Of a stretch of DNA of 64,000 nt, positions 29,571-58,967 are shown piece after piece. Position 1 is the stretch's first letter; every line of letters starts with the position of its first letter. Under the pieces are notes generated by a model. The model saw only the letters and a program-made list of their open reading frames with translations. It was not told the origin of the DNA and made no database searches. The stretch comes from an uncultured virus (IMG/VR IMGVR_UViG_3300037455_000492) (lineage: Duplodnaviria > Heunggongvirae > Uroviricota > Caudoviricetes). Both the position numbers and the translations under genes were made by a program. Location of the stretch: the IMG/VR virus record IMGVR_UViG_3300037455_000492; one strand, given 5' to 3'.

Positions 29571-29599
29571 AAAAACGGGGGAATAAATCCCCCGTTTTT
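29571..29599. terminator. Bidirectional terminator
   Basis: aaaaacggggga...tcccccgttttt between convergent genes. Confidence 0.75.
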
Positions 29600-29602
29600 A
29601 TT

Positions 29603-29897
29603 TGTAATTATACCTTTTAGTCTTGTGGGTTTCCTATTTTAATGTAAAACGTGAACGTATTGCCAAATGTTTCCGTTCTGATTTCCCATTCATTCATTTC
29701 GTTGAATTTCATTTTTTCCCAATCATCGTCTTCGGGTGTATGCCAAAAAAATTTTCCATCGTTGCGTACCTCAACTTCAAGTACATTTCCAACTTTCGCA
29801 CGGTTATCATTCCAAACCATTTCGTTGATAGTTTTTATATGATTCATATTCACTATATATTTTCACTATTTATACAAGACTAAAATGGACAATTCCG
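29603..29897 (-). mobile_element. TIR cassette with cargo ORF 29617-29853
   Basis: TIRs 29603-29626 and 29873-29897; TSD tttttatt at 29595-29602 and 29898-29905. Confidence 0.88.
29617..29853 (-). CDS. Small late protein (HIKTINE N-terminus), cassette cargo
   Basis: Ends QD* inside the TIR; TATAAATA at 29867-29874 (-). Confidence 0.65.
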   Translation of the reverse strand: MNMNHIKTINEMVWNDNRAKVGNVLEVEVRNDGKFFWHTPEDDDWEKMKFNEMNEWEIRTETFGNTFTFYIKIGNPQD

Positions 29898-30202
29898 TTT
29901 TTATTTTCTGAAACGAGCCGTGAATTCGACCCACCATTCGTTGAACGGCAGAACATTGTCGAATCCGTCCGTTACTTTGTTGTACTTCGCTTCCACGTCA
30001 TCCTTTATCATAGGAAGCGTGTCCACCACCCGTCTGTATATGTCGGGCTGTTTTTCCATCAAGGAGTTCGCTTTCTCGAACACATAGGAATTGACATCTT
30101 CCAACACCGCGCACATTTGCAGCGGGTCGATGAGGTATTCGGTCAATAAATTTGCGACCCTTATTTTTAAGTTTTTTAGAAATCCCATATATAAGCAATA
30201 TA

Positions 30203-30640
30203 TTAAAACATAGGTGAATCGTATCTGTACTGCCTCTTGAGCAAGGACAGCACGTGGTTGTTCGGGAATATGTCCCTGCCGCTCATACTGTTCACGGTGT
30301 ACCCGTAACAGTCGGCGAGGAATCTGCCGACAGCCTGCGAGCGTGACACGCCCGCCCTGCAATGAATGTAGAATGTGCGCCCTATGTTTTCCGCTATGAA
30401 GTTGTATATGGTTTCCGCCTGCTTGTCGGTCAAACCCTTTATGCCTGCAACGTCATAGTCGTTCACATCCCAAAAGTCTATGTTAAGCACACGCTCCGTA
30501 CCGTCTTTGAAATAGTGTGATGGTTCTTTCGGCTCGCTTATGGATATGACAGCCATATTGGTAGGAACGAAAGAATCGGAATACCCGTTTTCTTTCATAT
30601 AGTTGTCGAACAGTCTTTTGCTGAATATGTATGCGTTCAT
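30203..30640 (-). CDS. Cys-dependent (PTP/DSP-like) phosphatase
   Basis: HCRAGVSRS (CX5R) motif. Confidence 0.8.
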   Translation of the reverse strand: MNAYIFSKRLFDNYMKENGYSDSFVPTNMAVISISEPKEPSHYFKDGTERVLNIDFWDVNDYDVAGIKGLTDKQAETIYNFIAENIGRTFYIHCRAGVSRSQAVGRFLADCYGYTVNSMSGRDIFPNNHVLSLLKRQYRYDSPMF

Positions 30641-31623
30641 TATTTACTGTTTAATGTGCTTATGATATTTTTCTGCTCCGCTTCAACATCGCTTTTCAGT
30701 TCATCGAAACGCTCTCTGTTTTCAAGGGTGTCGTCAACGCAAACGTGTCTGCCGCTTCTGCCGCACAGATAGAATTCGGTGTTGTATTTGTTCTTGAGTT
30801 TTTCGATTGCGTCATTACACAGCATTCTGTATTCTTCCTCGATGTAGTTTGAAAATACGTCCTGCAAAATGGGTTCGTCAGAAATTTGGAGAAAATCCAT
30901 TCCGCTGTCCTCATCGTAATATGTGTCATAATTGTCACCAGTGTAGGCGGCATATTTGTAGAAGTAGTTTATGTCCTTGACTATGTTTTCACAATCTATG
31001 CGCATTTCGGAACAGAAGATATATACGTTACTGTAGTAGTCGGTATATTCGGCAAGCGGGCAATCTTTGTTGTCTATGCCACCACCGAGAACAATAGGAT
31101 TTGGCAAGTCGGTGTGCGCCCAACCGCCGCCGTAGTTGAATTCAAAATCTATGCTTTCATCGCATTCGTCTTGCAGGAAACGTTGCAGATATTCGGTGTA
31201 ACTCCTTATGTTTTCCACCATCTGCGCGTTTGACTTCAGTTTGCTCGCCGTTATGGGTTTTATGTTCAGTTTTTCGTTTACTTGGACATTGTATTTGTCT
31301 GCTATGTATTCCAAGAAATCGTTTTTGTAAACCCACCAAACTGAAGAACCATCGTGAACCATAATGTCATCGTCACTGTCGTATATGAAAAATTTGTCAT
31401 CACCGTCAGAATTTATGCCGTTGTAATAATCTTCGGTTGACCATTTTTTAAGAAGCGAACATTTGATGTCCATTTTTATTTTCCAATATTCCTTGCCATC
31501 GTCTATGGTGCGTTCTCCCGTGAAAGCGGCGGATTGATAATCGAATTCCAATCCCTCGAACTTGACTTTGTAGCCCGCTCCCGCGCCCTCGGCTATGAAT
31601 TGTTCCAATGTAAGTATATTCAT
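30640..31623 (-). CDS. Acidic late protein with capsid-targeting-like N-terminus
   Basis: MNILTLEQFIAE N-terminus; internal VNEKLNIKPI; TATAAATA at 31640. Confidence 0.6.
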   Translation of the reverse strand: MNILTLEQFIAEGAGAGYKVKFEGLEFDYQSAAFTGERTIDDGKEYWKIKMDIKCSLLKKWSTEDYYNGINSDGDDKFFIYDSDDDIMVHDGSSVWWVYKNDFLEYIADKYNVQVNEKLNIKPITASKLKSNAQMVENIRSYTEYLQRFLQDECDESIDFEFNYGGGWAHTDLPNPIVLGGGIDNKDCPLAEYTDYYSNVYIFCSEMRIDCENIVKDINYFYKYAAYTGDNYDTYYDEDSGMDFLQISDEPILQDVFSNYIEEEYRMLCNDAIEKLKNKYNTEFYLCGRSGRHVCVDDTLENRERFDELKSDVEAEQKNIISTLNSK

Positions 31624-32930
31624 AATTTTTGTGTTTTAGTATTTATATTCAGTAAACTTGTTGGAATTTTTATTATATTATGTTGTTGATAATTTTGTTG
31701 ATAACTTTTTCAGAAAAAATATTTGCGGTATAAAAATTTTTGTATTTTTGCAGCGTAATCAAAAACCAACGGTTATGGAATTCAAGTCAAAGAAAGCATT
31801 GGAGAATGCAATCAGAGAATCAATCACGACAAACCCGCAACGCGCCATTGACGCTATGATGCGAATCTACGAGTATCAAACGGCTGACGAGCAGGCGTGT
31901 GGTTTGGTGAGAAATCTCAACGGCGTAGGATTCGCCTGCATTGATTCGGCAGTTCTCTCATCGTTCTGCGAGAAATACAAAAGATACGGATACCTTTCCG
32001 ACAAGCAGATTGAGTATCTGTTCAAGAAAATCGGAAAATACGCCAAGCAACTCACAGCCCAAGCAATCGACAAGGGTCTTTATGTGAAAAAAGACAACGT
32101 GTGGGTTGTGAACAAGGCGGCGGTCAAGAAATAAATTGTCTAACATTAAAAACATCTGTTATGAGTCTTGAGAAATACGACAACAACATTGTCAAGAAAG
32201 GCGAAATGGTTTACGGCAATTCGCCGAAGACAGAAGTTCTCGCTGACGGAACTTACAAGGGATTCAAAGTGTGCATTCTCTCATACGGCACACACCCCTG
32301 CTGTTATTTCAAACTGAACGATGGCGACAAGTTCATAGGCACGAACTATGACGATATTCCATTGGACTGTCACGGCGGAATCACGTTCTTCCAAAAGACG
32401 GACAGCAACGCCCCGATGGGCGATGGGTATTGGCTCGGTTGGGACTACGGTCACTACGGCGATGCCTACGGGACTATGATGCCAGGCAGGACGTACACGA
32501 CCGATTTACTGATTGCCGACTTGAAGCAAGCCATCGATGAATACATTTGTCTTTAATACCGAACTGTTATGGAAACTTTCATTGTTGTATTGGTACTTAT
32601 TTTTCTTGTTGTTTTGGGTTTCGTGTTGGAAGCCATTGATGAACGCAAGTACATCAAAAGACGCAAGGAACTGCTAAAGGTGGGCAGAACCATCGTATGG
32701 TACGCCTGCATTAACAAAGAGTTTGACGATTGGAAAGAAATATGTTCCGCCGAAATCGTTGACTGCCGTGACGAATACTTCAAAATCCGTTACAGCAGCG
32801 GTGACTATGAATACGTTAAATACACGTTCTTCGGCAACTATGACGATAAGGTTGAAGTGTATGACGGGAACGACCTCATTTTTTCAACGGGATTTGAACT
32901 TTGCGACACCTATCACAAAAAGGATTAGTT

Positions 32931-33350
32931 ATGAATATTGTTGGCGCATTTGAGCGGGCTTTCAGAGAGAAAGCGGAACACGGATGGGAAAAGATATATG
33001 TCCTTGTCGATGTTCACGACACCATTATGGTCGGCGAAAAACCCGAAAGGGACAACCCGAAATGGTACGCGCACGCAATCGAAGCATTGCGTATTATGAC
33101 GGAGCGCGAGGACATTTGTCTGATTATGTGGACGGGCGCATACCCGTTGCGAATCAACAAATACAAAAGACTGCTTGCCGAAATGGGTGTTCGGTTCGAT
33201 TATGAGAACGAGAACCCAGAGGCGGAGAGCAATGACTTCTATTGCAGCGACAGCAAGGTTTACTTCAATGTCGGCACAGACGACAGATTCGGATTTGACG
33301 CGGAAAGCGATTGGAAAGACGTAGTTGATTTTTTACAAAAATCCAAATGA
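32931..33350 (+). CDS. HAD-superfamily-like protein
   Basis: VLVDVHDTI, LIMWT, DDR motifs. Confidence 0.6.
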   Translation: MNIVGAFERAFREKAEHGWEKIYVLVDVHDTIMVGEKPERDNPKWYAHAIEALRIMTEREDICLIMWTGAYPLRINKYKRLLAEMGVRFDYENENPEAESNDFYCSDSKVYFNVGTDDRFGFDAESDWKDVVDFLQKSK

Positions 33351-33351
33351 T

Positions 33352-34261
33352 ATGACAAAAGAAGAGTTATTGAATTACGCGATTGACCTGCGGTCTGATG
33401 ACAAACAAAAACGGGAGGACGCTTCAAAGGCTATACTTGCGCATTGTGAGCCTCTGTTCAAAAAATGGTATGAGGAAATCAACAAATACGGGGATTACAA
33501 CATATCCGATTTTGAAGGATACCTGCCGAATATGGGCTATATCGAAAGTGTGGACTATTGCCCGAAATGCAGGGAGTTCTGCTTTCTCTATATATGCGAT
33601 GAAAACAAAGTGCGTGACAATATCATTGTCGATTTTGACGTGTTGAGTGACGAAAAGTTCATCGAAAAGCAGGCACGCGAGTATTGGGAACACGCTGTGT
33701 CCTGCCTCGAAGAGGACATTGTTCGGAAAAAGAAAGCCATAGCCTATATGGAAAAGGCACTTGAAGAACTGAAGAAAAAAGAACCGAAAAAACTATAATA
33801 TGGAAAAGAAACAACTTAAAGAATGGGTCGATAAACTGAATTCCGACTCAAAGTCCATATCAAACAACGCGAAGAAAATCGTAATCAAGGAGTGCGAGCC
33901 TCGCCTTAAAAGATGGTATAACTGCATCCGCAAGTACGGCGACTTCAACATATCGGATGATGACGAGTACCTTGCCAACAGAGGCGGCATATCCGATGTG
34001 TGGTTCAACAAGGAGACAAACGAATTGTCGTTCCTATACACGGACGGTTGCAGGGGCGACCATATCGAGGACGATATAAATGTTGACCTTGACGAATTCC
34101 TTGATGACAATTTCTTCGCCAATCGGGAATACACCGCTTGGACAAAAGCGGTCACGTTAGCCGAGAAGTCGCTTGGATTCTACAAATCAAAAGTCTCCGA
34201 AACGGAGAAACTGTTGGAAAAACTGAACACAATCAAACCGAAACCAATCTATAAAAAATAA
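33352..34261 (+). CDS. Two tandem paralogous hypothetical proteins (33352-33798, 33800-34261)
   Basis: Shared CEP..K.WY..I.KYGD.NISD...YL.N.G.I. Confidence 0.65.
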
Positions 34262-35284
34262 GATTATGAATTTAAGAGAATTGAAAATCGGAAACTATGT
34301 CGTATCGAGGGGCGAAGTCACAAGAATAATCGGTGTTCGCACCGACACCGACAACCCGACCGTTCTGTGCGAGAACTGCGATGTGTGGGTTGGCGATGTG
34401 GGAGGCATCAGTCTTACGGAAGACATACTCACGCGCCTTGGATTCAGTATGTCTGACGACAACACATACGGGCTTATGCGCACGGTGTTCTATCCATTCG
34501 GCAAACTGAACGTGTGCGAGTACGAGGATTATTTGGTTGTCGATTTGGCTATGCCGCAATCGTGCATAGTCAAGCACCAATACATCAAAGAACACGAGAA
34601 CTACCCGCCGTCTTTGCTTAACAAGTCATTCGAGGGTGAGATTGTGTATTTGCACGAGTTGCAGAATGTTATGGAAACCGTTGGATGCATCAAAAAACTT
34701 GAACTCGATGTAAACGGCATCGAAGTCGAACACAAAAAAGAATAGTTATGAAAGAAGAAACAATGAATATCAAGGTGTATGTCGCCAATGACGGAAAGCA
34801 GTTCCTTGACAAAGAAGAGTGTGAAAAACACGAGAACACAATCAATAACATCCGTTATTTCGTGGTTAAGCACACGCCAGATTTGACCGAAACGGGTTCG
34901 TTCAGAGGTATCAGCGTGGTCGCCGTGTATTCGGAAAACGGATATCACAGAAACATTGTCGAAAGATGGTGCGTTGACGAAATGAAGTATGCGATTCTCG
35001 GCTACTCCGTGCAGGGCTACGGTTTCCAACCGCACTTTGAAATCATCGACAGCAAGTCCGATGACGATTTTGCGAAATGCTGTTGGAATAACTTTGAGTA
35101 CAACAAGGCATTGGACTGCTCAAACATTAGGTACAAGAGCAAGGCGTTTCTCTCGCCGAAACGGGTTGACGGATTTCCGAACAATTTCGACTATATGGCA
35201 AAATGGTTCAAAAACTAATTTTTTCTTGAACGTTTTTCTTGGATTTTTATTATATTGTATTGTAAAGTTCTTTGAATAACCAAT

Positions 35285-35438
35285 AGTGCGTAGCATAGCA
35301 GAATGCGCCGTTTGCAAAACTCCGATTCTTGAAAAAGAACCACACAGCAATTTTTCAATAAATCAGTTTTCTCATAATTATTAATTTTGTTTTTTACCCA
35401 AGCAAACGGAGATGCGGGTAATGCAATCCCGCCGCACT
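35285..35438 (+). ncRNA. tRNA-like RNA with 86-nt insert in the anticodon loop
   Basis: Acceptor agtgcg/cgcact, D-stem gcat/atgc, stem ccgtttgc/gcaaacgg, T-stem gcggg/cccgc; own promoter motif upstream and terminator downstream. Confidence 0.6.
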
Positions 35439-35498
35439 TTTTTATTTGAACTGTTTGTAATTTTATTCATAGTATTTTAATTTTTTATGTTTTTGAAC

Positions 35499-35530
35499 AA
35501 AAAAGGAAGTCCGATTGGACTTCCTTTTTT
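35499..35530. terminator. Bidirectional terminator
   Basis: aaaaaaggaagtcc-gatt-ggacttcctttttt. Confidence 0.85.
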
Positions 35531-35550
35531 GGTTTAAGTGATTTGGCTTT

Positions 35551-36903
35551 CTATATTTTTCTGCCGTCTTTGTCGTAGATGCACTTGACTGTTGGAAACC
35601 GCATACTCGTGCCGCCCTTTTGGTTCTTTGTTTCCTCGAAGTATTTGACGGTTATGGTCTTCCCCATTATTTCCTCTGGGTGTTCCGCATAGTGTATCCT
35701 CTGCTGTTTGTTGAACCCGCTTCCGACACCTACACGATTTCCTTTGTAGTCAATCACAACATTGGTAAGAACGTGCCGCACAACCTGCTTGCCGTCCTCA
35801 ACCATACGCATATCGCCGAGTTCGTAGTCAATCACGGTGAACTCATCGTCCAAAAAATCCTTTACTTTAAGGAGGTTGTTCGTGCGCTTGCCCTCGTAGG
35901 CGACATCGCGGCGAATCATAAGACCTTCCCATTTCTTCGCCCTCGCCTCGTCATAGAGCGTGTTGAACACTTCGTTGCTTTCAACTTTGGTCTGCTTCAG
36001 CATCTTTATATTGTTGCCGACAATTTCCCCATTGTCCAAACAGAACTGCCGCAGGTCTTCCAACCTCAACGAAAGATACCTGCCGCCACCGCAGTACAGT
36101 TCTTCCAATGTGAGTTTGTCGAACACTTGGTAGCAGGGATTTGGGATTGTGTAGTCTTTTTTCCTAACGAGTTTTACAATGCTTATGAAATCCTCGTTGC
36201 CGAGCAGGTCAACTATGCAGAGTTCACCATCAAGAACGAAGTTGTCTTCGGGACATTTTTCAAGGATTCGTTTCAGCACGCCGAGTGTAAGGAACTCCTT
36301 TTTCTGCCTTGAGTAGAATTTGACCAATCCGTTGCGCTTTATCGCTATGCACCTCACGCCGTCACATTTGCGGGATGCCCACCAATCCTGCGTGGTGAAG
36401 TCAACTTTTTCGGCAATGTCGAAATACTTGTTTGCCAATGCGACACCGAAGTTCTCGTTGATTGTGTCGAACCCTTTGAGGTCGAATACCGTTTGAATTG
36501 TGTTCGCAGCCACACCGCAGCCGAAGTCCTTGTCTATGATGTCAAGGAAAAGATTGGAGACCGCAAGGTCTTTTTTGCGCAGGGCGTTCCGTATCGAAGC
36601 ACAAATTTCAACAGCATAGTTGCCCGTTATTTTCCTCTCCGAAAGTGATTCGAGTACATACATAATGTTCTCATCGGAAACGGTCTCGGCGCATCTGTCG
36701 GACTTGCATTTCAAAATGTTGTCTGCTGACACATAGAATCTGACGTGGGGGTTGGCAATGAAGTTGAACACTCTCATAGCGAAGTCGCTGTCGGCTTCGC
36801 TTTTGTATTTTTCAAGCATCTCGCGTTTTTTGTTCAACGATGAAGTTTGCATCAGATTTTGCTGTAAATCAGACAGTTTTTTGAATTGTACTAATTTTTC
36901 CAT
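35551..36903 (-). CDS. ATP-dependent DNA ligase
   Basis: KCDGVR (motif I), LDGEL, EGLMIR, LLKVK, MRFP. Confidence 0.93.
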   Translation of the reverse strand: MEKLVQFKKLSDLQQNLMQTSSLNKKREMLEKYKSEADSDFAMRVFNFIANPHVRFYVSADNILKCKSDRCAETVSDENIMYVLESLSERKITGNYAVEICASIRNALRKKDLAVSNLFLDIIDKDFGCGVAANTIQTVFDLKGFDTINENFGVALANKYFDIAEKVDFTTQDWWASRKCDGVRCIAIKRNGLVKFYSRQKKEFLTLGVLKRILEKCPEDNFVLDGELCIVDLLGNEDFISIVKLVRKKDYTIPNPCYQVFDKLTLEELYCGGGRYLSLRLEDLRQFCLDNGEIVGNNIKMLKQTKVESNEVFNTLYDEARAKKWEGLMIRRDVAYEGKRTNNLLKVKDFLDDEFTVIDYELGDMRMVEDGKQVVRHVLTNVVIDYKGNRVGVGSGFNKQQRIHYAEHPEEIMGKTITVKYFEETKNQKGGTSMRFPTVKCIYDKDGRKI

Positions 36904-37047
36904 ACTGAAATTTTTAAAATTGCAATTATTTATATTCGTTTTTTATTATATCAATAACGAGGGTTTGTTATAAATAAAATCCCAATCTTAAATAATAAAA
37001 ATTGTCAGAAAATATATTATACTAAACATAAAAGATAAACTACTGAT

Positions 37048-39213
37048 ATGCGTGTATTGAAAAGAGACAAGACGATTGAGAAATTTTCCAAGATGAAAAT
37101 TCGCAAATCATTACAAAAGACATTCAAGTCTTGCAAAGTCAAGTTCTGTGCAGAATGTTATGACGAAATCATAAAGAACATCAACGCGGCATACACAAAC
37201 GGCGATTCCGATGTTCTTGACATCAACCAAATCCAAGACATTACGGAATCGACACTCGTCAAGTGCGACCTGCCCGAAGTGGCAAAAGCGTATATTCTGT
37301 ATCGTCACGAAAGGGACAGAATACGTGAGTTTACCAAACAGAAGCAGGATTTCATTGAGAGTTACAAGAAGGCTTACAACACAGCCGACAACACAGTTGA
37401 TGACAACTCGAATGTGGCGAACAAGAACATCGGCGTTCTCAATGCCGAAATCCACAAAAAGGACAATATCCAAATCAACCGAATGACGGTTACGAACAAA
37501 ATACACACGTTGTATCCCGACTTCGATGCCAAGCAGTATTGCAGGGATTTGGAAGACCACATTATCTACAAGAACGATGAAAGTTCGTTTGCCTGCATCA
37601 GTCCTTATTGTGTCGCAATCACAATGTACCCGTTCTTGATTAACGGTATGAAGGAATTGGGCGGGCTTTCGGCAAAGCCGAAAAACCTCGACAGTTACTG
37701 CGGTATGCTCGTGAACCTTGTGTTCGCTCTTTCATCCCAATTCGCAGGTGCTGTCGCACTTCCCGAAGCGTTGCTTTGCTTCGATTATTTCGCACGAAAG
37801 GAATGGGGTGACGACTATATCGACCACATTGACGAACCGTGCAAAAGCAGTTTCTGCGCAACACAGAGAACTGTCGGTGAGCAAATTCACCAATATTTCC
37901 AACAAATCATCTATTCAATCAACCAACCCGCAAGCGCAAGGGGTATGCAAAGCGCATTCGTCAATTTCTCTTATTTTGACGAACCTTTCTTCCACGGGAT
38001 GTTTGACGATTTTGTTTTCCCCGATGGCACAAGACCGATTTGGCGTACAATCAATTGGCTTCAGAAAGACTTTATGAAGTGGTTTAACGAGGAACGCTTG
38101 AAGTGCATCCTCACATTCCCCGTTGAGAGTTTCGCTATGATTTACAAGGACGGCGAGTTCGTTGACAAAGAGAACTTCCAATTCGTATGCGATGAATATG
38201 CACGCGGTCACAGTTTCTTCACGTATATCAGCGACACTGTTGATTCATTGAGTTCCTGCTGCCGTCTGCGCAATAACATCACGGCTCACGAGTTCAATTT
38301 CACAAACGGCAACATCTCCGTTCAGACGGGTTCTAAATCCGTTATTTCACTCAACCTTTCCCGAATTGTCCAAAACGCCGTAAAGGATTTCGACAATCCG
38401 CAGGACAGATTGGAGAAAGACGCAATTTACGAGGCTATCCGCAACTACCTCATCGAGGTTCTCGGTCGTGTCTATATCTATCACAACGCATACAACGAAC
38501 TGTTGTGGGATATGTACGAGGCTAAACTTATGCCCGCTTACGATGCAGGATTCATCCATCTTGACAAACAGTATCTCACAATCGGCTTGAACGGTCTGAA
38601 CCAAGCGGCTGAATTCCTTGGCTTGAAATGCACGAAGAACAAACAATATGGCGAGTTCTGCCATATGATATTCGGCACGGTTAAGGAGCAAAACGCCTTG
38701 CATAAGACCAAACACACTATGTTCAACACGGAGCAAGTTCCCGCCGAAAGCCTCGCCGTCAAGAATTACAATTGGGACAAAGAGGATGGATATTGGGTTC
38801 CAGAGGACACGAACTTGTATGCAAGTTACATCTTCAAGCCGAATGACCCGAAGATTTCCGTGCTTGACAAAATCGAGATGCACGGTCGCGACTATATCGG
38901 CGACTACCTTGATGGCGGTTCAGCCGCCCATATCAATTTGAGCGAACACCTCACGTCAAAACAATATGACGTTCTGCTGCACCACGCAGCAAACACGGGT
39001 TGCCAATACCTTACATTCAATGTGCCTAACAGCGAATGCGAGGACTGCGGTTGGATTGCAAAAACACCCGTTGACGAATGTCCGCACTGCCACAGCAAGA
39101 ATATTGTCTATTGGGACAGAATCATCGGTTATCTCACCAAAATCAGAAATTGGAGCGAGGGCAGGCGCATCGAGCAGAAGACCCGTGTTTACACAAGGAA
39201 AGTGAATGTTTAA
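37048..39213 (+). CDS. nrdD: Anaerobic (class III) ribonucleotide reductase with ATP cone
   Basis: VLKRD ATP cone, SCCRL, CxxC...CxxC, RIIGYL glycyl-radical motif. Confidence 0.95.
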   Translation: MRVLKRDKTIEKFSKMKIRKSLQKTFKSCKVKFCAECYDEIIKNINAAYTNGDSDVLDINQIQDITESTLVKCDLPEVAKAYILYRHERDRIREFTKQKQDFIESYKKAYNTADNTVDDNSNVANKNIGVLNAEIHKKDNIQINRMTVTNKIHTLYPDFDAKQYCRDLEDHIIYKNDESSFACISPYCVAITMYPFLINGMKELGGLSAKPKNLDSYCGMLVNLVFALSSQFAGAVALPEALLCFDYFARKEWGDDYIDHIDEPCKSSFCATQRTVGEQIHQYFQQIIYSINQPASARGMQSAFVNFSYFDEPFFHGMFDDFVFPDGTRPIWRTINWLQKDFMKWFNEERLKCILTFPVESFAMIYKDGEFVDKENFQFVCDEYARGHSFFTYISDTVDSLSSCCRLRNNITAHEFNFTNGNISVQTGSKSVISLNLSRIVQNAVKDFDNPQDRLEKDAIYEAIRNYLIEVLGRVYIYHNAYNELLWDMYEAKLMPAYDAGFIHLDKQYLTIGLNGLNQAAEFLGLKCTKNKQYGEFCHMIFGTVKEQNALHKTKHTMFNTEQVPAESLAVKNYNWDKEDGYWVPEDTNLYASYIFKPNDPKISVLDKIEMHGRDYIGDYLDGGSAAHINLSEHLTSKQYDVLLHHAANTGCQYLTFNVPNSECEDCGWIAKTPVDECPHCHSKNIVYWDRIIGYLTKIRNWSEGRRIEQKTRVYTRKVNV

Positions 39214-39232
39214 TATATTGCATATATATATT

Positions 39233-39254
39233 GTGGGCGCGGGAACGCGCCCAC
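39233..39254 (+). terminator. GC-rich hairpin after nrdD
   Basis: gtgggcgcg-ggaa-cgcgcccac followed by ttt. Confidence 0.6.
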
Positions 39255-39290
39255 TTTAAAATCATACGCATAACCCCAATACAATAGAAT

Positions 39291-40301
39291 ATGATTAGCA
39301 TTATAACCCCTGCGCACAAAGTCATACCTTGGTTCAACGCAAGGCTAATAAACATCTGCTCGCAGGATTCCGATGAATGGGAATGGATTATCCTTGACAA
39401 TTCGGTTGACGGCTGCGTTAAGGCTTATGTTGATGATTTTTTCACAAAAATGCAGGGCATACACTATCCGCAATGCAGGGAGAAAATCAAAGTCTATCAC
39501 GAGCCGCAGTTTGCCGACATCCAACTTATCGAAGGCAAGATGGGCAAAATGTGCAACCGTCTTGTTGAACTGACCAATTGCGGGTACGATGGATTCTTTA
39601 TGCGCCTTGACTTTGACGATTTCTTGTTTGACGGATGTATCCGTATGCTGAACGAGGCTATACGGATGAATCCCGACACCGAATTTGTCACGGGTCAGAT
39701 TGGCGACTGCCTAATTATGACAAAGGACGGCAATTTCGACTATGTGGATTTCAGCGATGCGTTCAGCCACAAACCAGACGATTTGTTGGAGATAATGTAT
39801 TCGCACAATATATGCGATGCAAGTTTGCTGAAAAAATACGAGCAGGATTTGGAGAAAAACGGGCTGCACAGAAGGCTCGTTCCTTGTGCGTGCAGTTTGG
39901 CTATACCATATACAGAATTGTTTTTCTACCAAAGCGCGGTTCAGAGCCTCATAGACGGATGGGATATGTTCGGCGGCGTGGAACATCCGCTTTGCATAAA
40001 GAAAAGCGCGTTCCTCAAAAAGTTCGGAAGTTATGTTGTTGACAACTCAAAGGAGGACTTGATAAGTCTGTCCTACATAACAAAGTTTGACAACATAGTC
40101 TATATTGACAATCCCTGCTATCTTCGCTGTGTTGTATGCACGCAACGCGGAAAGTTTTACTATATGGACAGCGGAACTATCGAAGTCTGCAATGCGGGTA
40201 ACAACACAAGGGAATGGACGTGTCTTATGAAACAACTGAAATACAATTACGACATACTCGGACTTGACAAACTTATAGTACCGAAACGCATCAAATTTTA
40301 A
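39291..40301 (+). CDS. GT2-like glycosyltransferase (copy 1)
   Basis: ISIITPAH, WEWIILDNS, RLDFDD. Confidence 0.75.
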   Translation: MISIITPAHKVIPWFNARLINICSQDSDEWEWIILDNSVDGCVKAYVDDFFTKMQGIHYPQCREKIKVYHEPQFADIQLIEGKMGKMCNRLVELTNCGYDGFFMRLDFDDFLFDGCIRMLNEAIRMNPDTEFVTGQIGDCLIMTKDGNFDYVDFSDAFSHKPDDLLEIMYSHNICDASLLKKYEQDLEKNGLHRRLVPCACSLAIPYTELFFYQSAVQSLIDGWDMFGGVEHPLCIKKSAFLKKFGSYVVDNSKEDLISLSYITKFDNIVYIDNPCYLRCVVCTQRGKFYYMDSGTIEVCNAGNNTREWTCLMKQLKYNYDILGLDKLIVPKRIKF

Positions 40302-40306
40302 TTCCA

Positions 40307-41326
40307 ATGATTAGCATCATAACACCAGCGCACAAGGTTTTGCCTTGGCATAACCTGCGCTTAATCAATATATGCGAGCAGGATTCCGATGAATGGGAAT
40401 GGATTATCCTCGACAATTCGGTTGACGGCTGCGTTAAAAAATACGTGGACGATTTTTTCACCAAATGGCAGGGCGTGTATTACCCGCAATGCAGGGAGAA
40501 AATCAAAGTTTATCACGAGCCGAAGTTTGCCGACATATCCATTGTTGACGGAAAGATGGGCAAACTCTGCAACCGCCTCGTTGAACTGACGAACTGCGGA
40601 GATGACGGATTCTTCATAAGACTCGACTTTGACGATTTTCTGTTCAAGGGCTGCGTCCGTATGCTGAACGAAGCAATAAGACTGAACCCGACCACCGAAT
40701 TCATAACGGGTGAACTGTGCAACAACCTTTGCCAAAAAATATCGGACGGAGGATTCTATTACAATGACGGCTCGGCGAGTTGGTATGCAGTACCCGAAAA
40801 TATGATTCAACTCCTTATTGCCTACGGATGGGAATCCAAGGAAGGGTTCAAGGAATTTGTGGAAGATGTCCGCACAAACTACCACAATTTAGCACCGAGA
40901 TACTTGACTTCCAAAAAAAGCGTCATCAGCCTTCCGCGCACGGAGTTCACTTTCTACGGAAATAACGTTCTGACATTGAGGGACGGTTGGGGGATGTTTG
41001 GCGTGCCAGAGCATCCGCTGTGTGTGAAAAAAGGTGCGTTCATAAACAAGTTGGGCGGATTTGTCACGGACAACACGAAGGAGGATTTGAACCGACTTTC
41101 GTATCCGTTGGTGTTCAATGACATTGTATGGGTTGACAATCCATTGTATATGCGCTGCTTCCAAATTGACGACACGTTGCAGATGTGCGGCACTACATTG
41201 ATTGTACGGGCAGAGTGCGACTACACGAAAGAAAGCGAATATAAGATAAAGACTCTTACGGAGTTCTACGAAAAATACGGGTTCAGAGGAAAAGTGCCTT
41301 GCCACAGAATAAAGTTTGACGAATAA
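40307..41326 (+). CDS. GT2-like glycosyltransferase (copy 2)
   Basis: Same motifs; 5' third nearly identical to copy 1. Confidence 0.75.
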   Translation: MISIITPAHKVLPWHNLRLINICEQDSDEWEWIILDNSVDGCVKKYVDDFFTKWQGVYYPQCREKIKVYHEPKFADISIVDGKMGKLCNRLVELTNCGDDGFFIRLDFDDFLFKGCVRMLNEAIRLNPTTEFITGELCNNLCQKISDGGFYYNDGSASWYAVPENMIQLLIAYGWESKEGFKEFVEDVRTNYHNLAPRYLTSKKSVISLPRTEFTFYGNNVLTLRDGWGMFGVPEHPLCVKKGAFINKLGGFVTDNTKEDLNRLSYPLVFNDIVWVDNPLYMRCFQIDDTLQMCGTTLIVRAECDYTKESEYKIKTLTEFYEKYGFRGKVPCHRIKFDE

Positions 41327-41331
41327 ACATT

Positions 41332-41643
41332 CGGAATTATCCCTTTTAGTCTTGTAAAAATGATTATGGAAAACAACAATAAGACGGCAAAGGAAATATG
41401 TAACTGCGAATACTGTAGAAGCAATGGCACATTGTTATGTGATATGATTGGTGGTTGTGTTGCGTATCGTACCGTATTACAACTCTTGTATTATAAACAT
41501 AAGCGTCCTTCGGAAGAACTAATCAACAAAATTTGTGGGGTATTTTTTGATGCACAAGAATATATTAAACGAGACAACCTTGATGCGTTTGAGTGGATTC
41601 ACAAACAATTAAAAACACTACAAGACTAAAAGGGATAATTCCG
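41332..41643 (+). mobile_element. TIR cassette with cargo ORF 41360-41629
   Basis: Perfect 25-bp TIRs at 41332-41356 and 41619-41643; TSD taaacatt at 41324-41331 and 41644-41651. Confidence 0.95.
41360..41629 (+). CDS. Small Cys-rich protein, cassette cargo
   Basis: CNCEYC...C....C; ends QD* inside the right TIR. Confidence 0.6.
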   Translation: MIMENNNKTAKEICNCEYCRSNGTLLCDMIGGCVAYRTVLQLLYYKHKRPSEELINKICGVFFDAQEYIKRDNLDAFEWIHKQLKTLQD

Positions 41644-41699
41644 TAAACATTTTTCTCTGTTTTTTATTATATGATTACAAGAACATTCAATTTAACATT

Positions 41700-42395: not shown

Positions 42396-42432
42396 TTAAA
42401 ATCATTTATCAAAACTTTAAATTATCAAACTA

Positions 42433-43224: not shown

Positions 43225-43502
43225 TGGACGCGGTAGGCAAATATATAATGTTGCGCCAAGACCCGCGCAGAACGCATATCGGGGGGCTGTTTATCCCAGA
43301 GATTGAAAAGAGGGATGACAGAATCCCCCCGCCATATAGCGGAATCATCGAGTCGGTCGGTGAGGATGTCGTGGGGTACAAAAAGGGCGACCATATTGCC
43401 TTTGACGATATGTGCAGACCTTGGGTTGTCGAAATTGACGATTACGAGGTCATAGTATTCAAAGATACTGACGTTATATGCAAATTTGAAGATGAAAAAT
43501 AA
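43224..43502 (+). CDS. groES: Co-chaperonin GroES/gp31-like
   Basis: GGLFIP mobile loop, G.IESVGEDV...KKGD.I.F, DVIC. Confidence 0.8.
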   Translation: MDAVGKYIMLRQDPRRTHIGGLFIPEIEKRDDRIPPPYSGIIESVGEDVVGYKKGDHIAFDDMCRPWVVEIDDYEVIVFKDTDVICKFEDEK

Positions 43503-48964: not shown

Positions 48965-49228
48965 ATGAAATAGAAAAGCATTGCAGGGAATCGCTTGATA
49001 TGTGGAGCGAGGTTCTTACCCAAGCGAACACGCAGGGTTGGGGCGCATACTTGGATTTCACGCACAAAGACGTAATGAACGCCGTGACCGTGATGACAAC
49101 GATAAGCACCAACTATGCGCTGAAGCACGGTAAAATCTCAACGGTGGAGGACGCATCCGCAATAGGGGAGGCTTTGCATTCCTTTATGCTCAACTATTTC
49201 GGCATAGACACATTCAAGGAAAACTGAT

Positions 49229-49730: not shown

Positions 49731-49756
49731 CAAAGCACCCACGTTTGGGTGCTTTG
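49731..49756 (+). terminator. Terminator hairpin
   Basis: caaagcaccca-cgtt-tgggtgctttg. Confidence 0.75.
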
Positions 49757-54694: not shown

Positions 54695-54714
54695 ATCATC
54701 TAATATAATCAATT

Positions 54715-55566
54715 ATGGCAAGCAAAGACAGTTTGGGCGACCGTATGAAAGAGAACTACGAAGCCCGATTCAAATTCAAATTATTGAGACGGACACCCGT
54801 CATCATCCGCATTGACGGCAAGGCGTTCCACAGTTTCACCCGTGGTTTCAACCGCCCGTTTGACCGTGTTCTGTCAAACGCTATGGACAGAACTATGAAA
54901 TCGCTGTGCAGCAGCATCCAAGGATGCGTGTTCGGATACACGCAGTCTGACGAAATCACAATCGTTATGCACGACTACGAGAGCCTCAACAGTTGCGCGT
55001 GGTTCGACAACGAAGTGCAGAAGATTTGCTCCATCGCCGCTTCTATGGCTACCTGCCAATTCAACAAGGCATTCGCCGATGAGGTCGCCATTTTCCGTCA
55101 GAAGGTTTATTTCACCAACATCAATGAGGACGATTCATTGAAGAAAGACTACTACATTGATGACATCGAGACGGCGAAGAAACTGCACGAGAAATACGCG
55201 AGCAGGCTGCATACAGCAATGTTTGACGCACGCTGTTTCAACATACCCATTGCCGAGGTAGCGAACTGCGTCCTTTGGCGGCAGCAGGATGCCACCCGCA
55301 ACAGCATCGAGATGGCGGGCAGGTACTATTTCAGCCATTCGGAACTCCACAAGAAAAATTCAAGCAACATCCAAGATATGCTGATGGAGAAATTCGGCGT
55401 TAATTGGAACGACTACCCCGTGCGGTACAAGCGCGGCTGTGCCTGCTACAAGCGGTGGGTCGGCGAGAAACCGCTTGGCAAAAGCGAATGGTACGTGGAC
55501 TACGATATGCCAATCATCTCCAAGGACAGAAATTATATCGAGCAGTACATTTTGCCGAAAGATTAA
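54715..55566 (+). CDS. thg1: tRNA(His) guanylyltransferase Thg1-like (3'-5' polymerase)
   Basis: RIDGKAFHSFT, YTQSDEI, FDAR, WRQQDATRNS. Confidence 0.9.
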   Translation: MASKDSLGDRMKENYEARFKFKLLRRTPVIIRIDGKAFHSFTRGFNRPFDRVLSNAMDRTMKSLCSSIQGCVFGYTQSDEITIVMHDYESLNSCAWFDNEVQKICSIAASMATCQFNKAFADEVAIFRQKVYFTNINEDDSLKKDYYIDDIETAKKLHEKYASRLHTAMFDARCFNIPIAEVANCVLWRQQDATRNSIEMAGRYYFSHSELHKKNSSNIQDMLMEKFGVNWNDYPVRYKRGCACYKRWVGEKPLGKSEWYVDYDMPIISKDRNYIEQYILPKD

Positions 55567-57643
55567 CAATTCACTTTTTTATAAACAATCAAAAACCAAA
55601 AATTATGCTTACAATTATTTTATTAGCAGCAATTACAATCGGATGTATCATTTGGTCTTGCAAATCCGAATGGGATGTACAAGACGTAGCCATCGGCTTC
55701 GCTATCGTTATGTGCTTGTGCCTATCCATCGTTCTTCTGACCTTGTGCAACAGAGGCAAGCGTTTCGAGTATGCCAAGCAGGAATACCTCAACTTGAAAA
55801 CGCAGGTCGAGGAATACAACTCACTGCCCGACTCCTGCAAGTTGGTGACATTCGAATATGACATCAGAAAGGACGTGTTGGCAATGAACAACAAAATCTC
55901 CCGCCACGCCGTTATGCACAAGAGCATTTGGAAGGGCCCCTGGTTCAGCGAGGAAATCGGTCAACTCCCCAAACTCCATATTGTCGCAAAGACCAACAGT
56001 GACATCATTCAGCAAGAAACTGAAAAATAGCAAACTATGAACATTGACTTTGAAATTTGCGAGAAACCTATGCCGTTCAACAAGGACGCTGTTAAGTTTT
56101 TGTCCGAAAAGGGCAGTGTGATGTTTCTGTGGCTTCGTGAAACGAAAGACGAATACGACTACGACAAGCACAAGGATGTCAAAAAAATTACGGACAAAAT
56201 AGTCACGATAAACATCCACCCGAACATCACCATTGTCGGACACGATTTTTTCAGTGACATACGTTTCCGCAACACGGAACTCATAGGATACTGCCCCCTT
56301 GAGTTCCCAAGTCAATGTCAAATCTCAATCTGATTCGTTATGAAAGAAAAAGTATTTTCCACATTTCTCGGAATGCCAATTGTTATGGAGGTTGTGAAAG
56401 AGGATGAATCACAGTACCCGTACCAACTCACGCCAATCAAATTCTCGAAAAAGGATATGAAACGGCTGAACATCAGCGAGCGCGACAACTATTGCCACAT
56501 CACAAAGAACGGCAAGAAAGTCAGCGACTTGATATTCAGACGCGGCGGTTTCTCATCATCCTTAAAGGATATGAACACGAAACGCTATGTCGAACTTCTG
56601 ACCTATGACGAGGACAGATACAGCGATTCCGTGGTAAAGGATTGCAAACTCAAAAGTCCGTATTGCCTGCAATCGCACAACTGCGTTTTTGATATGGAGA
56701 AGCACGAAATCGCGTTCAAGACGAATGACCGTTTCCACGATTATATCTTCATCTACGAAAATCTGTGCATCAGCAAAATCAATGACGGAGTTTGGTTTCT
56801 TCCCGAAAGAAAGTGGGTGCTTGACAAATCCTACAACTTGGACGGCTATATCGAAACCAAGCAGTTCATCTACGCCTATTCGGACAAATACAGAAAAGAG
56901 AACACGATTATGTACCGCATCGACAAAATAACGGGAGAGGTCGTGAACTGCAACGAAATAAACGGAACGGAATAATTATGGACGACTATTCAAGTTTTGA
57001 ACTCGGACTGCTGCTGAAAAAGGCGGGGTTTGACGAAGCGTGCTTTATGGCATACGTCAAGTTCAACCACGGACTGAAAACATTGAAGTACGTGGACTGC
57101 CCGACCAACAGCGACTTGAACCATCTGTGGTGCAACACCGAGTTTTGCAGCGCACCGACACACCAATCCGTTCTGAAATGGCTTCGCGACAAGTACAAAA
57201 TCCTCGTATATATCGACTATGACGGTATGACGGACAACTACTGTTGGGCTACAACCGATTTGGTGAGCGGCGACCCAAGACCCTATGACGGCATTGCCGA
57301 CTCATATTACGATGCGGTCGAAAACGCCGTGAAATACATTGTGAAAAACGTCATACCGAAAGACATCGAGTGGGCAGAAAAACAAAGATAATATGGAAAT
57401 AAACGAAAGACGAAAGCAGATAACGAAAGAGGTCAAGAAAATTATCCAAGACCAATTCAACAGTTGGCATTCGAGAGACTGCGCGGAATGCCCGTTCACA
57501 GACGAATGCAAATACACGGTTATGAACACACAAAACTCTTCATCGCTGTGCGAACTTGTATCGCGCAATTCAGATTCCAACAATGCGCCGACAAGGAAAG
57601 CAAACGAAGAAAATCTGATTTCTTGGTGACATTCAATAATTTT

Positions 57644-58060
57644 CGAAATTACCCCCTTTAATCTTGTAAACAATAGAAACAAATAGTATGACAAGGCGAG
57701 AATTGGAAAATATGCAATGTGTACATAAGAAAATGCAGTTCGGCAAATATAAGGGAATGTGTATTCTTGATGTAATTGACAAGGATGCCTCTTATATCGT
57801 ATGGTGCATAAAAAATGTGAAAGGATTTGAACTTGACGAAAATTTAGTTCACGATATGCTTGCCCAATATGAACGTCACCATCGGAATTTGCAAAATGAC
57901 ACACCGCAAGTTTTACATCTTATGAAAACCTATGGTATGCACGCAAACGAGGCAATTGACTTCATTGACAATAACGAAATGCCCGAACATTTCTGATTAT
58001 GAGACTTTGTAAACACAATTTATAACTGTCATTTTTTACAAGACTAAAGAGACAATTCCG
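57644..58060 (+). mobile_element. TIR cassette with cargo ORF 57688-57996
   Basis: TIRs 57644-57668 and 58037-58060; TSD ataatttt at 57636-57643 and 58061-58068. Confidence 0.9.
57688..57996 (+). CDS. DUF3820/ExoX C-terminal-like small protein, cassette cargo
   Basis: MQFGKYKG...D..Y..W motif. Confidence 0.65.
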   Translation: MTRRELENMQCVHKKMQFGKYKGMCILDVIDKDASYIVWCIKNVKGFELDENLVHDMLAQYERHHRNLQNDTPQVLHLMKTYGMHANEAIDFIDNNEMPEHF

Positions 58061-58967
58061 ATAATTTTTATTATATTATAGAAAAACGATATGGACGTAA
58101 GATACCTATTTGACACTGACGAGATTGAGGTTACGGACGAATTCGGATTCCCGACATACTATCCTATGTCGGAACTCAAGGAGATAGACGCAAACGAAAG
58201 AGAACTCGGAACGGAAACCGAATACTTGATTGAGGAAAGGGGTTTGCACGTGGTGATGTACCCAGAGGGGGTGGTGTCGGATTATTTTATTGACGAGGAC
58301 TAAAAAACACAAGGAAATGGAAGAAAAGCCGAAAATCAAATTCAAGAATTTCAAGATATGGTTCGCCGACCAATGGAAACGCAAGAGGTTTTTTTACAAC
58401 TTCTTCATTTCAAGGAACGCTTGGGGTGCGTTTTCAATCAATTCACACATCAACCAAGGAAGCGGCAAGCCAAAAGTGATGTACAACACACTCAAGACGG
58501 CGTTGAAAAGCGCGGAGAAAATGTCGGAGAAGCACGGCACGCATTTTAGCACTTACAAATGCTTGTTCTGTGACGGATACCATATCGGCAAAAACAGAGA
58601 CAATAAAATTAAAAAAACAGACAAAAATGACGGAGAATAAAGAAGTTGTGCAGAATGTGAAGGAATGGATGGTGACTATATTCATCGTGCTGTTCCTTGT
58701 CGTGGGGTTCGCCCTTTCGGTTTTCACGAAAGAGTACAAGGCTACTCGGAAAACAAACAAATTGGAAGTCGGCGACAGATTCAAGGTGGAATTCGTTTCC
58801 GATAACCCCTATGAAGACCACATCATTTTCGGCGGAACGATAACCGCGAAGCACGGGAACTACATCCAATATGTGAACGAGAAAGGCGACACCGTCTCAA
58901 CGAACATTCGTGATGCATACCGTTTTCCAAAAATGTTCACAGTCACAGTTTACAAAAACAAAGAGAA

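Follow-up and report, generated by a model that had tools for sequence, protein, structure and literature searches.

Transposase-less IS1595-type cassettes in a jumbo phage of the cattle gut, one of them with TnpB and an omega-RNA-like structure

Four small IS1595-type cassettes, none of which encodes a transposase, were found in a jumbo phage from the cattle gut/rumen, within the 64,000-nucleotide stretch of DNA that was analysed (the window). All four are very probably non-autonomous derivatives, that is, mobile insertion cassettes (MICs), of a single IS1595-family insertion sequence. A new finding is that the cassette carrying a tnpB gene ends in what sequence comparison identifies as a covarying omega-RNA-like structure, which continues into the right repeat of the element. 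The elements are bounded by a 25-bp inverted repeat, CGGAATTATCCCTTTTAGTCTTGTA, and their features are as follows.

8952..10244, + strand: TnpB cassette, 1293 bp, family inverted repeats at both ends
8952..8976, + strand: left inverted repeat of the TnpB cassette, 1 mismatch to the consensus
8993..10216, + strand: tnpB, 407 aa, RNA-guided nuclease by family matches
10082..10244, + strand: omega-RNA-like region (nhmmer E 2.4e-34), overlapping the 3' end of tnpB and including the right repeat
10221..10244, - strand: right inverted repeat of the TnpB cassette, 1 edit (a single base deleted)
10245..10264, + strand: putative guide region of the omega-RNA, the flank just outside the right end, assigned from TnpB biology
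29595..29602 and 29898..29905: left and right target duplication of cassette 1, tttttatt, 8/8 exact
29603..29897, - strand: cassette 1, 295 bp, degenerate repeats (29603-29627, 4 edits; 29873-29897, 2 edits to the consensus)
29617-29847, - strand: cargo ORF of cassette 1, 76 aa, beginning MNHIKTINEM (leader family)
41324..41331 and 41644..41651: left and right target duplication of cassette 2, taaacatt, 8/8 exact
41332..41643, + strand: cassette 2, 312 bp, perfect 25-bp repeats (41332-41356 and 41619-41643, 0 edits each)
41360-41629, + strand: cargo ORF of cassette 2, 89 aa, cysteine-rich, no family
57636..57643 and 58061..58068: left and right target duplication of cassette 3, ataatttt, 8/8 exact
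57644..58060, + strand: cassette 3, 417 bp, degenerate repeats (57644-57668, 4 edits; 58037-58060, 3 edits to the consensus)
57688-57996, + strand: cargo ORF of cassette 3, 102 aa, ExoX-like C-terminal domain

With up to 3 mismatches allowed, the 25-mer has four matches in the window and none in 100 shuffles, and an indel-tolerant search recovered all eight ends of the four elements. The target duplications, located both by eye on the sequence and by script, are exact at the three small cassettes, while the flanks of the TnpB cassette have no matching 8-bp duplication (aatttgaa versus aaatatgc, 3/8). Each interior contains one ORF, starting 3-26 nt inside one repeat, and an all-versus-all blastn comparison of the interiors gave no similarity. 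No IS1595 transposase was found in the window, where the best tblastn match of a related transposase has an E value of 0.013 over 49 aa. A sequence-only reading had proposed just such a family, with a shared terminal repeat, 8-bp duplications at the small cassettes, unrelated single-ORF interiors and no transposase in the window, and these proposals hold. It had also claimed A/T-rich intergenic targets next to terminators or promoters: all four insertion sites are intergenic, the cassette targets are A/T-rich, and the left duplication of cassette 1 (29595-29602) lies within the T-run of a terminator hairpin.

A transposase bounded by the same ends, which the sequence-only reading had called for, exists in relatives and has the proposed IS1595 affiliation. 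The 387-kb related phage contig G001 contains a 3.4-kb element (156820-160206) with perfect 25-bp ends and the duplication ATTTTAAA, which encodes a 319-aa transposase with a DDE_Tnp_IS1595 domain (PF12762, 4.9e-33) and a score of 181.5 bits to NCBIfam NF033547 (cut-off 75). Bacteroidales genome bins contain copies of this transposase at 84-97% protein identity, with the same ends and ordinary bacterial neighbours (Zn-metallopeptidase, papain/caspase, BspA-LRR, and radical-SAM genes). The L065/L048 copies (97% amino acid identity) are flanked by the duplication ATAAAAAA and L076 (84%) by TTTTTTTA; further host copies are L057, L068, L049, and L052. Host copies match DDE_Tnp_IS1595 at 3.9e-33 and 4.4e-34. 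Both ends of cassette 2 are 25/25 identical to those of the autonomous copies in G001, G007, and L076. The autonomous elements also carry passenger ORFs, at 3.4 kb in phage G001 and at 2.4 and 2.9 kb in genome bins. At the family level, the cassettes and their autonomous relatives are IS1595 elements, and the end CGGAATT fits the motif CGGnnTT of ISNha5, a candidate subgroup. Among five related phage contigs, one has the PF12762 domain; the CheckV-complete 413-kb relative G002 has none, although repeat ends are present. Zn_ribbon_IS1595 (PF12760, cut-off 25.4) is above its cut-off in L065 (27.4 bits) and slightly below it in G001 (24.6) and L076 (22.5), a domain described in the available part of PMC8101967 as the N-terminal zinc ribbon of all IS1595 groups except IS1016.

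Three DNA runs were compared (X2, X3, and X4), of which X3 and X4 are independent gut-metagenome runs from two different studies. Contigs from these two, about 95-99% identical to the window, have exact joins across cassettes 1 and 2. At cassette 1 the joint runs from 29591 to 29895 (303 bp skipped) and at cassette 2 from 41323 to 41644 (320 bp skipped), in each case the length of the element plus one duplication copy. Cassette 2 is filled in X2, a contig of which spans its left junction. In G002, the cassette-2 site is empty with one copy of the target, and the alignment to the window is gapless once the element and one duplication copy are removed; the TnpB cassette is also missing there, with its site at 169205-169234. 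Cassettes 1 and 3 lie among genes that differ from those in G002, so no clean empty site can be read there. Empty sites with a single copy of the duplication, which the sequence-only reading had called for, are present in X3 and X4 for cassettes 1 and 2 and in G002 for cassette 2. These alleles are a presence/absence polymorphism, and the direction and timing of events are not read from them; at least one event was recent, as the perfect repeats of cassette 2 and its variable presence in near-identical phages indicate.

T4-type phages carry PeSL cassettes, and the repeats could be imagined as recombination or regulatory modules of a similar promoter-stem-loop type, shuffled by homologous or site-specific recombination and not by transposition. 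The positions of the cargo ORFs, which across the catalogued elements begin 3-70 nt inside one repeat, would suit such modules, as would the inner repeat TAGTCTTG, which is one base off TAnnTTTG, the Bacteroidota -7 promoter box. About half of the repeat pairs lack a perfect duplication. Yet 15 of the 39 catalogued pairs have one, the exactly duplicated 8-bp sequences are unrelated, and target duplications are not a product of recombination modules. The empty alleles contain exactly one duplication copy, so there were no pre-existing repeats, and the same ends, again with 8-bp duplications, enclose an IS1595 transposase. We consider shuffling without transposition extremely unlikely.

The family extends well beyond the window, with repeat-bearing loci at 14 places in viral contigs and 42 in genome bins, many cassettes with differing cargo, and 4-15 ends apiece in four Bacteroidales genome bins of 2.6-3.5 Mb. 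Insertion sites show a preference for YA immediately outside the 8-mer. The elements are common to host chromosomes and phage and therefore indicate host-phage traffic and not a phage-internal shuttle. Of the earlier proposal that single phage genes are trans-mobilised around the phage genome, the non-autonomous single-gene cassettes remain and the restriction to the phage genome does not.

Several of the cargo proteins are members of a large phage gene family, which is represented 25 times in G001 and 8 times in G002 and shares an N-terminal decapeptide. This decapeptide, M-x-HIKRINEM, ends in an I-x-E site that we take, by analogy, to resemble the T4 capsid-targeting signal. The cargo of cassette 3 scores 38.4 bits to Pfam PF20600 (cut-off 26.5), and a homologue with 74% amino acid identity is located at a different G002 locus, flanked by decayed repeat-like ends. 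In a PHROG search, 17 of 19 cargo proteins had no match, and relatives of the cassette 1 cargo form two clusters.

Such cargo bears on whether host IS activity has left the cassettes as inert relics in the phage, selfish DNA that is now fixed or decaying, with no gene shuttle and no benefit to the phage. With 2-4 edits per repeat, cassettes 1 and 3 have decayed ends and may have lost their mobility. Cargo without assignable function and with few relatives would agree with relics, as would a G+C content of 33-37.5% in the cassettes versus 42.7% in the window, and the frequency of the same elements in host chromosomes. Against this stand the perfect repeats and polymorphism of cassette 2, the intact cargo ORFs, the membership of several cargo proteins in the decapeptide family, and the retention of the cassette 3 cargo at the other G002 locus. 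Taken together, we regard inert relics as rather unlikely.

The TnpB of the window matches the Pfam families OrfB_IS605, Cas12f1-like TNB, and HTH, scores 322 bits to NCBIfam guided_TnpB (cut-off 100), and aligns with ISDra2 TnpB (PDB 8BF8/8EXA) at an E value of 5.4e-75. Its motifs GLDLGIKD, VEDL, and HDRDVNAA (RuvC D/E/D) and CSGCG...CECCG (zinc-finger cysteines) align with the corresponding ISDra2 motifs. The nuclease looks intact. The omega-RNA-like structure consists of 39 pairs, 13 with compensatory changes, and 97.1% of cells are paired, versus 31-49% when the partners are slid. Its covariation score of 0.345 was reached by none of 500 shuffles, and slid controls gave at most 0.076. An Rfam search of the region returned no match.

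It could be argued that an ordinary tnpB element of the IS200/IS605 or IS1341 type lies here beside IS1595 repeat remnants with no functional tie, as the TnpB is closest to the ISDra2 type (IS200/IS605) and the window copy has no target duplication. About half of its relatives likewise lack a matching duplication. However, other contigs contain at least 12 tnpB elements (1284-1372 bp) that are bounded on both sides by this repeat, five of them (L003, L014, L115, L128, and L139) with perfect 8-bp duplications. The conserved RNA structure enters the right repeat, where helices 7 and 8 pair with part of it, and is kept in ORF-less elements of about 330 bp that retain both repeats. Membership of the TnpB elements in IS200/IS605 was rejected in view of their 25-bp terminal repeats, the five perfect duplications, and an NCBIfam IS200_TnpB score of 393 bits, below the cut-off of 425. 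IS200/IS605 elements are described in the available part of PMC13565253 as having subterminal hairpin ends and a Y1 TnpA, with neither terminal inverted repeats nor target duplication; neither hairpin ends nor a Y1 TnpA was seen here. A chance association of tnpB with the repeats is very unlikely.

The RNA scaffold stops at the right transposon end, and the putative guide would therefore be the adjacent flank, that is, the duplication plus the right flank. In the G002 empty allele, GGATA precedes a sequence that matches the right flank of the window TnpB cassette with 1 mismatch. At positions -10/-9, just 5' of the duplication, omega-RNA elements have TA in 14/16 of their left flanks, compared with 19/68 other ends and 3/33 of their right flanks (Fisher, 1.7e-5 and 1e-7), a motif of just two bases within A/T-rich DNA. 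When phage and metagenome loci only are counted, the comparison is 14/15 versus 6/19 (p 3.6e-4). The TA hypothesis came from eight viral-contig elements (7/8), and all nine left flanks that the metagenome scan added agreed with it. On the right side, the flanks of omega-RNA elements depart from the general target signature, with A at -9 in 9/33 versus 50/68 other ends. The TA enrichment suggests RNA-guided homing, in which TnpB would cleave the empty alleles of co-infecting phages and recombination would copy the cassette in; on these sequence patterns, we give homing about an even chance.

Mobile insertion cassettes are known from several systems, among them the qnrD and qnrS2 MICs. The class is defined, and MIC231 of IS231 in Bacillus cereus described, in PMC3913671, and with MICs as presented in the available part of that source the three small cassettes share a non-transposase gene enclosed by two IS-type repeats, a target duplication, and the lack of a transposase inside or nearby. 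Mobilization in trans by the transposase of the parent IS, which the same part of PMC3913671 gives for MICs, is presumed for the phage cassettes, with indirect support from the empty alleles and from the cognate transposase in one of five phage contigs and in host genome bins. Unlike for MIC231, the parent is a Bacteroidales IS1595 element, the carriers are a jumbo phage and its hosts, and the cargo is either a tiny phage-type ORF or a module of TnpB and omega-RNA. ISNha5 is an IS1595-family transporter IS (tIS) with passenger genes (PMC11891212, in the portion available, citing Siguier et al. 2009). The autonomous relatives resemble it in having an IS1595 transposase and passenger ORFs inside the repeats and in their 8-bp duplications, whereas the window elements are all transposase-less derivatives.

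With the MITEs of bacteria and giant viruses (PMC6004678 and PMC10969869, as far as their available text goes), the cassettes share short, non-autonomous elements with terminal inverted repeats, target duplications, and a presumed amplification in trans; the available text of PMC6004678 does not contain the word "phage." The ORF-less omega-RNA elements of relatives fit the MITE class, and the window cassettes are MICs and not MITEs because each carries an intact ORF. With the OMEGA systems of IS200/IS605 and IS607, the TnpB cassette shares a RuvC triad that is intact and a predicted structured RNA that overlaps the 3' end of tnpB and stops at the right end; a candidate motif lies where the target-adjacent motif (TAM) would be expected in the empty site. 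In contrast to these systems, its carrier is an IS1595-type element with terminal inverted repeats that makes 8-bp duplications, the duplication lies between the putative TAM and the left end, and hairpin ends, a Y1 or serine TnpA, and scarless excision are missing. The available part of PMC13565253 reports TnpB inside terminal inverted repeats with DDE transposases (ISL2, IS630, and IS1031), and IS1595 is absent from the families named there. It also describes "non-restorative homing" into co-infecting phages, and homing endonucleases. Like the free-standing homing endonuclease genes and PeSL cassettes of T4-type phages, the elements are small mobile modules at hypervariable intergenic spots of large phages and are polymorphic between close relatives; unlike them, they involve DDE transposition with target duplication, and cleavage may be RNA guided rather than protein guided.

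The parent element resides in the chromosomes of rumen and hindgut Bacteroidales, and at least one related jumbo phage carries it too, as a passenger-carrying transporter IS. We propose that a DDE transposase from the host chromosome or a co-resident element would act in trans on the shared ends, and the cassette would be inserted at an A/T-rich 8-bp target, with YA preferred outside the 8-mer, and 8 bp would be duplicated. Movement in trans during infection is what we infer, and the same applies to which transposase copy acts on the cassettes. The TnpB cassette would be the same vehicle with TnpB and its guide RNA as cargo, the TA immediately 5' of the duplication serving as the TAM. In its fullest form, and as a tentative reading, an IS1595 vehicle may have captured and adapted TnpB and omega-RNA, with its repeat in the scaffold and the duplication plus right flank as the guide, may home into co-infecting jumbo phages, and may also ferry decapeptide-family genes between Bacteroidales and phages. 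If this is true, the cassette would propagate itself into the empty alleles of co-infecting jumbo phages through RNA guidance.

The four elements of the window that share a 25-bp terminal inverted repeat are mobile insertion cassettes (MICs) of a passenger-carrying IS1595 element common to Bacteroidales and their jumbo phages. The 25-mer CGGAATTATCCCTTTTAGTCTTGTA has four matches in the window at three or fewer mismatches and none in 100 shuffles, and all eight repeat ends fall into four inverted pairs once indels are allowed in the window search, so the family proposed in the sequence-only reading is real.

Repeat-bounded elements of the window, with their ends and cargo
8952-10244, TnpB cassette: ends 8952-8976 and 10221-10244, inverted pair with indels allowed; 407-aa TnpB (Pfam OrfB_IS605, Cas12f1-like TNB, and HTH)
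29603-29897, cassette 1: ends 29603-29627 and 29873-29897, inverted pair with indels allowed; 76-aa ORF, minus strand
41332-41643, cassette 2: ends 41332-41356 and 41619-41643, inverted pair, both perfect; cysteine-rich 89-aa ORF
57644-58060, cassette 3: ends 57644-57668 and 58037-58060, inverted pair with indels allowed; 102-aa ORF with an ExoX-like C-terminal domain (PF20600, 38.4 bits against a cutoff of 26.5)

As that reading had also held, cassettes 1, 2, and 3 have an exact 8-bp direct repeat on either side (tttttatt, taaacatt, and ataatttt, respectively), the interiors of the four elements are mutually unrelated, with one ORF apiece, and the window encodes no IS1595 transposase. Each ORF starts 3 to 26 nt inside one repeat, and the best tblastn match for the transposase has an E value of 0.013 over 49 aa. 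No matching duplication was found at the 1293-bp TnpB cassette, where the flanking 8-mers agree at three of eight positions.

The window is DNA of a large rumen or hindgut phage, and metagenome runs of bovine and other gut samples, from 12 studies, contain near-identical DNA; window 41000-42000 gave zero blastn matches to GenBank phages. It is syntenic with G002, a related 413-kb IMG/VR contig (CheckV 100%), at 70-76% identity across most of its length and 89-98% around a tandem array of paralogous DNA methyltransferase genes (6698-12990), which suggests that this block was recently exchanged between phages. The TnpB cassette lies in the middle of the array, and an apparent ~30-bp flank duplication there was rejected as paralogy of the 3' ends of the methyltransferase genes. 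The 21 ORFs chosen for scanning from the 322 listed include those for a helicase, an ATP-dependent ligase, NrdD, a tRNA nucleotidyltransferase, several DNA methyltransferases, and a 471-aa reverse transcriptase (3734-5149; phrog_1423, 1.6e-45). A repeat of ~85 bp at 31683-31762 and 23701-23781, with ~17 copies in G002 and a word depth that peaks at 273 in the DNA metagenome run X3, bears TTTG ... TATTTTTG, which we take to resemble the -33/-7 promoter boxes of Bacteroidota, and probably represents a phage promoter module present in several copies.

Empty sites with one copy of the duplication, whose absence would have refuted the sequence-only reading, were found in relatives. Logan contigs from 4 of the 21 listed runs were aligned to window 29000-46000. 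In X3 and X4, DNA runs from different studies in which most pieces are 95-99% alike to the window, one contig each joins 29591 to 29895 at cassette 1, skipping 303 bp (295 + 8), and one contig each joins 41323 to 41644 at cassette 2, skipping 320 bp (312 + 8); the ambiguity in the position of the joint, 12 bases for cassette 1 and 8 for cassette 2, is the duplicated target. Cassette 2 is filled in a further DNA run, X2, where an 851-bp contig spans the left junction with zero differences. Its empty site is also present in G002, which has a single CGAACATT where the window carries TAAACATT twice, and in silico removal of the element and one duplication copy yields a gapless alignment. G002 offered no clean empty site for cassettes 1 and 3 and is uninformative there because the adjoining genes differ; a homologue of the cassette 3 cargo (74% protein and 78% nucleotide identity) lies at another G002 locus between decayed repeat-like ends. 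Contigs of the RNA run X11 cover parts of 29000-46000, none of the pieces listed falling inside a cassette, and an X11 joint from 41357 to 41619 resembles a different cassette with identical ends. One X2 contig joins over 1587 bp (43994-45582), with 22 other letters between and one side of only 28 letters, a weak hint of a variant, by deletion or replacement, that would span the ORFs at 43486-45096 and 45093-46319.

An IS1595 transposase between the same ends, predicted in the sequence-only reading, was discovered in both phage and host sequences. A repeat scan of viral contigs returned 14 loci, in jumbo-phage contigs. In G001, a related 387-kb phage contig, two perfect repeats 3.4 kb apart flank three passenger ORFs together with a protein of 319 aa, which matches DDE_Tnp_IS1595 at 4.9e-33 and NCBIfam NF033547 at 181.5 bits (cutoff, 75), with Zn_ribbon_IS1595 at 24.6 bits, slightly below its 25.4 cutoff; the duplication of this autonomous element is ATTTTAAA. 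In genome bins the same scan returned 42 loci, almost all of them in metagenome-assembled Bacteroidales genomes from the rumen of buffalo, yak, and sheep and from horse feces. Full-length transposases adjoin the repeat at L065/L048, L057, L068, L076/L077, and L049 and are 84-97% identical to the phage copy, with a further copy at L052 being 65% identical, and two host elements are flanked by perfect duplications, ATAAAAAA and TTTTTTTA. The possibility that the large genome-bin contigs are mis-binned phage was rejected on zero matches to window 39300-43200 in four bins (E ≤ 1e-10); the contigs of these 2.6-3.5 Mb bins read as bacterial and their transposase copies as chromosomal. Four Bacteroidales genomes carry 4-15 repeat ends each, many in short pairs, and a survey of 20 ORFs chosen from 7 loci showed the neighbors of host copies to include a Zn-metallopeptidase, a papain/caspase protease, a BspA-type LRR protein, and a radical-SAM enzyme. 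In autonomous copies (L010:3000-3070 and L011:2955-3025, both G001, and the right end of L065) the inverted repeat is longer, ~65 bp (a conserved GYCGWCATYCCGAYATAACGG... tract), either on both sides or on the transposase side alone; the cassettes have the outer 25 bp only. Because the transposase domain is found in only one of five related phage contigs and is absent from the complete G002, mobilization in trans is the economical reading, and the cassettes would probably be moved by the host transposase copies.

The autonomous relatives show all of the features quoted for the IS1595 family. A passenger-carrying IS has been named a transporter IS, one such being ISNha5 in the IS1595 family (PMC11891212), and a MIC is a repeat-bounded gene cassette without transposase but with target duplications, the first of which, MIC231, was moved in trans by IS231A (PMC3913671). 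The window elements fit this definition, and the interpretation of the cassette family given in the sequence-only reading is supported overall. Such MICs are of a known kind and are found here in an unusual setting; no description of IS1595 cassettes or IS1595-borne TnpB in phages was found in the open-access literature searched. At the 68 repeat ends of non-TnpB elements, the flanking 8-mer is almost purely A/T, position -9, the next base outward, is A in 50, and -10 has T in 27 and C in 24. Cassette 1 sits within a terminator T-run, and no left-end-specific target signature relative to cargo orientation was seen by eye in six non-TnpB cassettes.

The cargo yielded few functional leads. Pfam, PHROGs, and NCBIfam returned only the ExoX-like domain of cassette 3, a homologue search with cassette 1 returned two clusters with no names, and the ESM Atlas gave no usable lead for the cargo of cassettes 1 and 2. 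Twelve distinct proteins of the fetched loci begin M-x-HI(K/R)-x-x-(N/D/E)-E-(M/L), including the cargo of cassette 1 and of four other cassettes and passengers of the G001 and host elements. A degenerate DNA pattern for such genes found 25 in G001, 8 in G002, and 5 and 2 in two further related phage contigs (G004 and G003), with none for the reversed control. A large gene family defined solely by a shared N-terminal decapeptide, M-x-H-I-K/M-R/K-x-N/D-E-M, occurs at window 29847 (minus strand) and genome-wide in G001-G004. Synonymous codon variation within the decapeptide indicates that constraint acts at the protein level. The capsid-targeting sequence of T4 ends in I/V/L-x-E, as does this motif, and by that analogy the decapeptide might serve as a signal for processing or targeting (I-x-E).

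The TnpB of the window matches ISDra2 TnpB (8BF8/8EXA) at an E value of 5.4e-75, with conserved RuvC D/E/D and zinc-finger motifs, and clears the NCBIfam guided_TnpB cutoff. The final ~160 nt of its cassette (10082-10244) are conserved in tnpB elements on other contigs, in ORF-less ~330-bp elements with both repeats (L042 and L009), and in several one-ended remnants. Two partial sequences among the 13 in the alignment were set aside, and from the other 11 RNAalifold predicts 39 pairs for this putative omega-RNA, 13 with compensatory changes. In this structure 97.1% of cells pair, against 31-49% with partners slid, and the covariation score is 0.345, against ≤0.076 in slid controls and reached by 0 of 500 shuffles; as the structure was derived from the same sequences, the slid control is somewhat favorable and the compensatory-pair count is the stronger measure. 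Predicted helices 7 and 8 take in the right repeat, so that the predicted scaffold ends exactly at the transposon end. Rfam gave no match at E ≤ 1 in window 8800-10400. With the window TnpB as query, no protein of this type was found in four host genome bins, and G002 has only a 42%-identical TnpB (142633-143736). G002 also carries three omega-RNA-only remnants or mini-elements (21958-22098, 48897-49048, and 406696-406845; L043, L040, and L042), which may be orphan guides or decay products.

Directly 5' of the duplication, TA occupies positions -10/-9 in 14 of 16 left flanks of omega-RNA elements, compared with 19/68 other ends and 3/33 right flanks (Fisher, 1.7e-5 and 1e-7), and in phage and metagenome loci only, in 14/15 versus 6/19 (p 3.6e-4). 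The pattern was first noticed on eight viral-contig elements (7/8) and then recurred in 9/9 left flanks added by the metagenome scan. If this RNA works like those of known TnpB systems, its guide would correspond to the flank adjoining the right end of the TnpB cassette. In G002 the empty allele of this cassette has GGATA and then the right flank seen in the window, apart from a single mismatch (position 12); in an empty site, TA would directly precede the sequence matching the putative guide. TA is read here as a candidate TAM, and the pattern may point to homing into alleles that lack the element, a concept named "non-restorative homing" (PMC13565253). Counting against this reading, a matching duplication is missing from the window TnpB cassette and from roughly half of the related ones, and in right flanks of omega-RNA elements (among L003-L163) the outward position -9 is A in 9/33, versus 50/68 (74%) of other ends (p 1.3e-5). 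The negative TnpB search of the four host bins and the limited similarity of the G002 TnpB also weigh against it. The same review calls TnpB associations with DDE transposons uncommon, and it describes TnpB inside TIRs with the DDE transposases ISL2, IS630, and IS1031 as known, without naming IS1595 (PMC13565253). The TnpB/omega-RNA cargo, with a candidate TAM set by duplication geometry, is the new part of these findings.

Transposons are considered rare in the genomes of virulent phages. A single IS1595 lineage is here common to rumen Bacteroidales and their 190-410-kb phages and ferries single small genes to and from phage genomes that are otherwise near-identical. This is a concrete route, open to testing, for host-phage gene flow and for the "small ORF" regions that are hypervariable in jumbo phages. 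A natural case of an RNA-guided nuclease on a DDE transposon that makes target duplications is provided by the TnpB cassettes, with the prediction that the TAM is TA and the guide the duplication plus flank; if true, this would show OMEGA adaptation to a different transposition chemistry and may give a compact nuclease whose TAM is very short.
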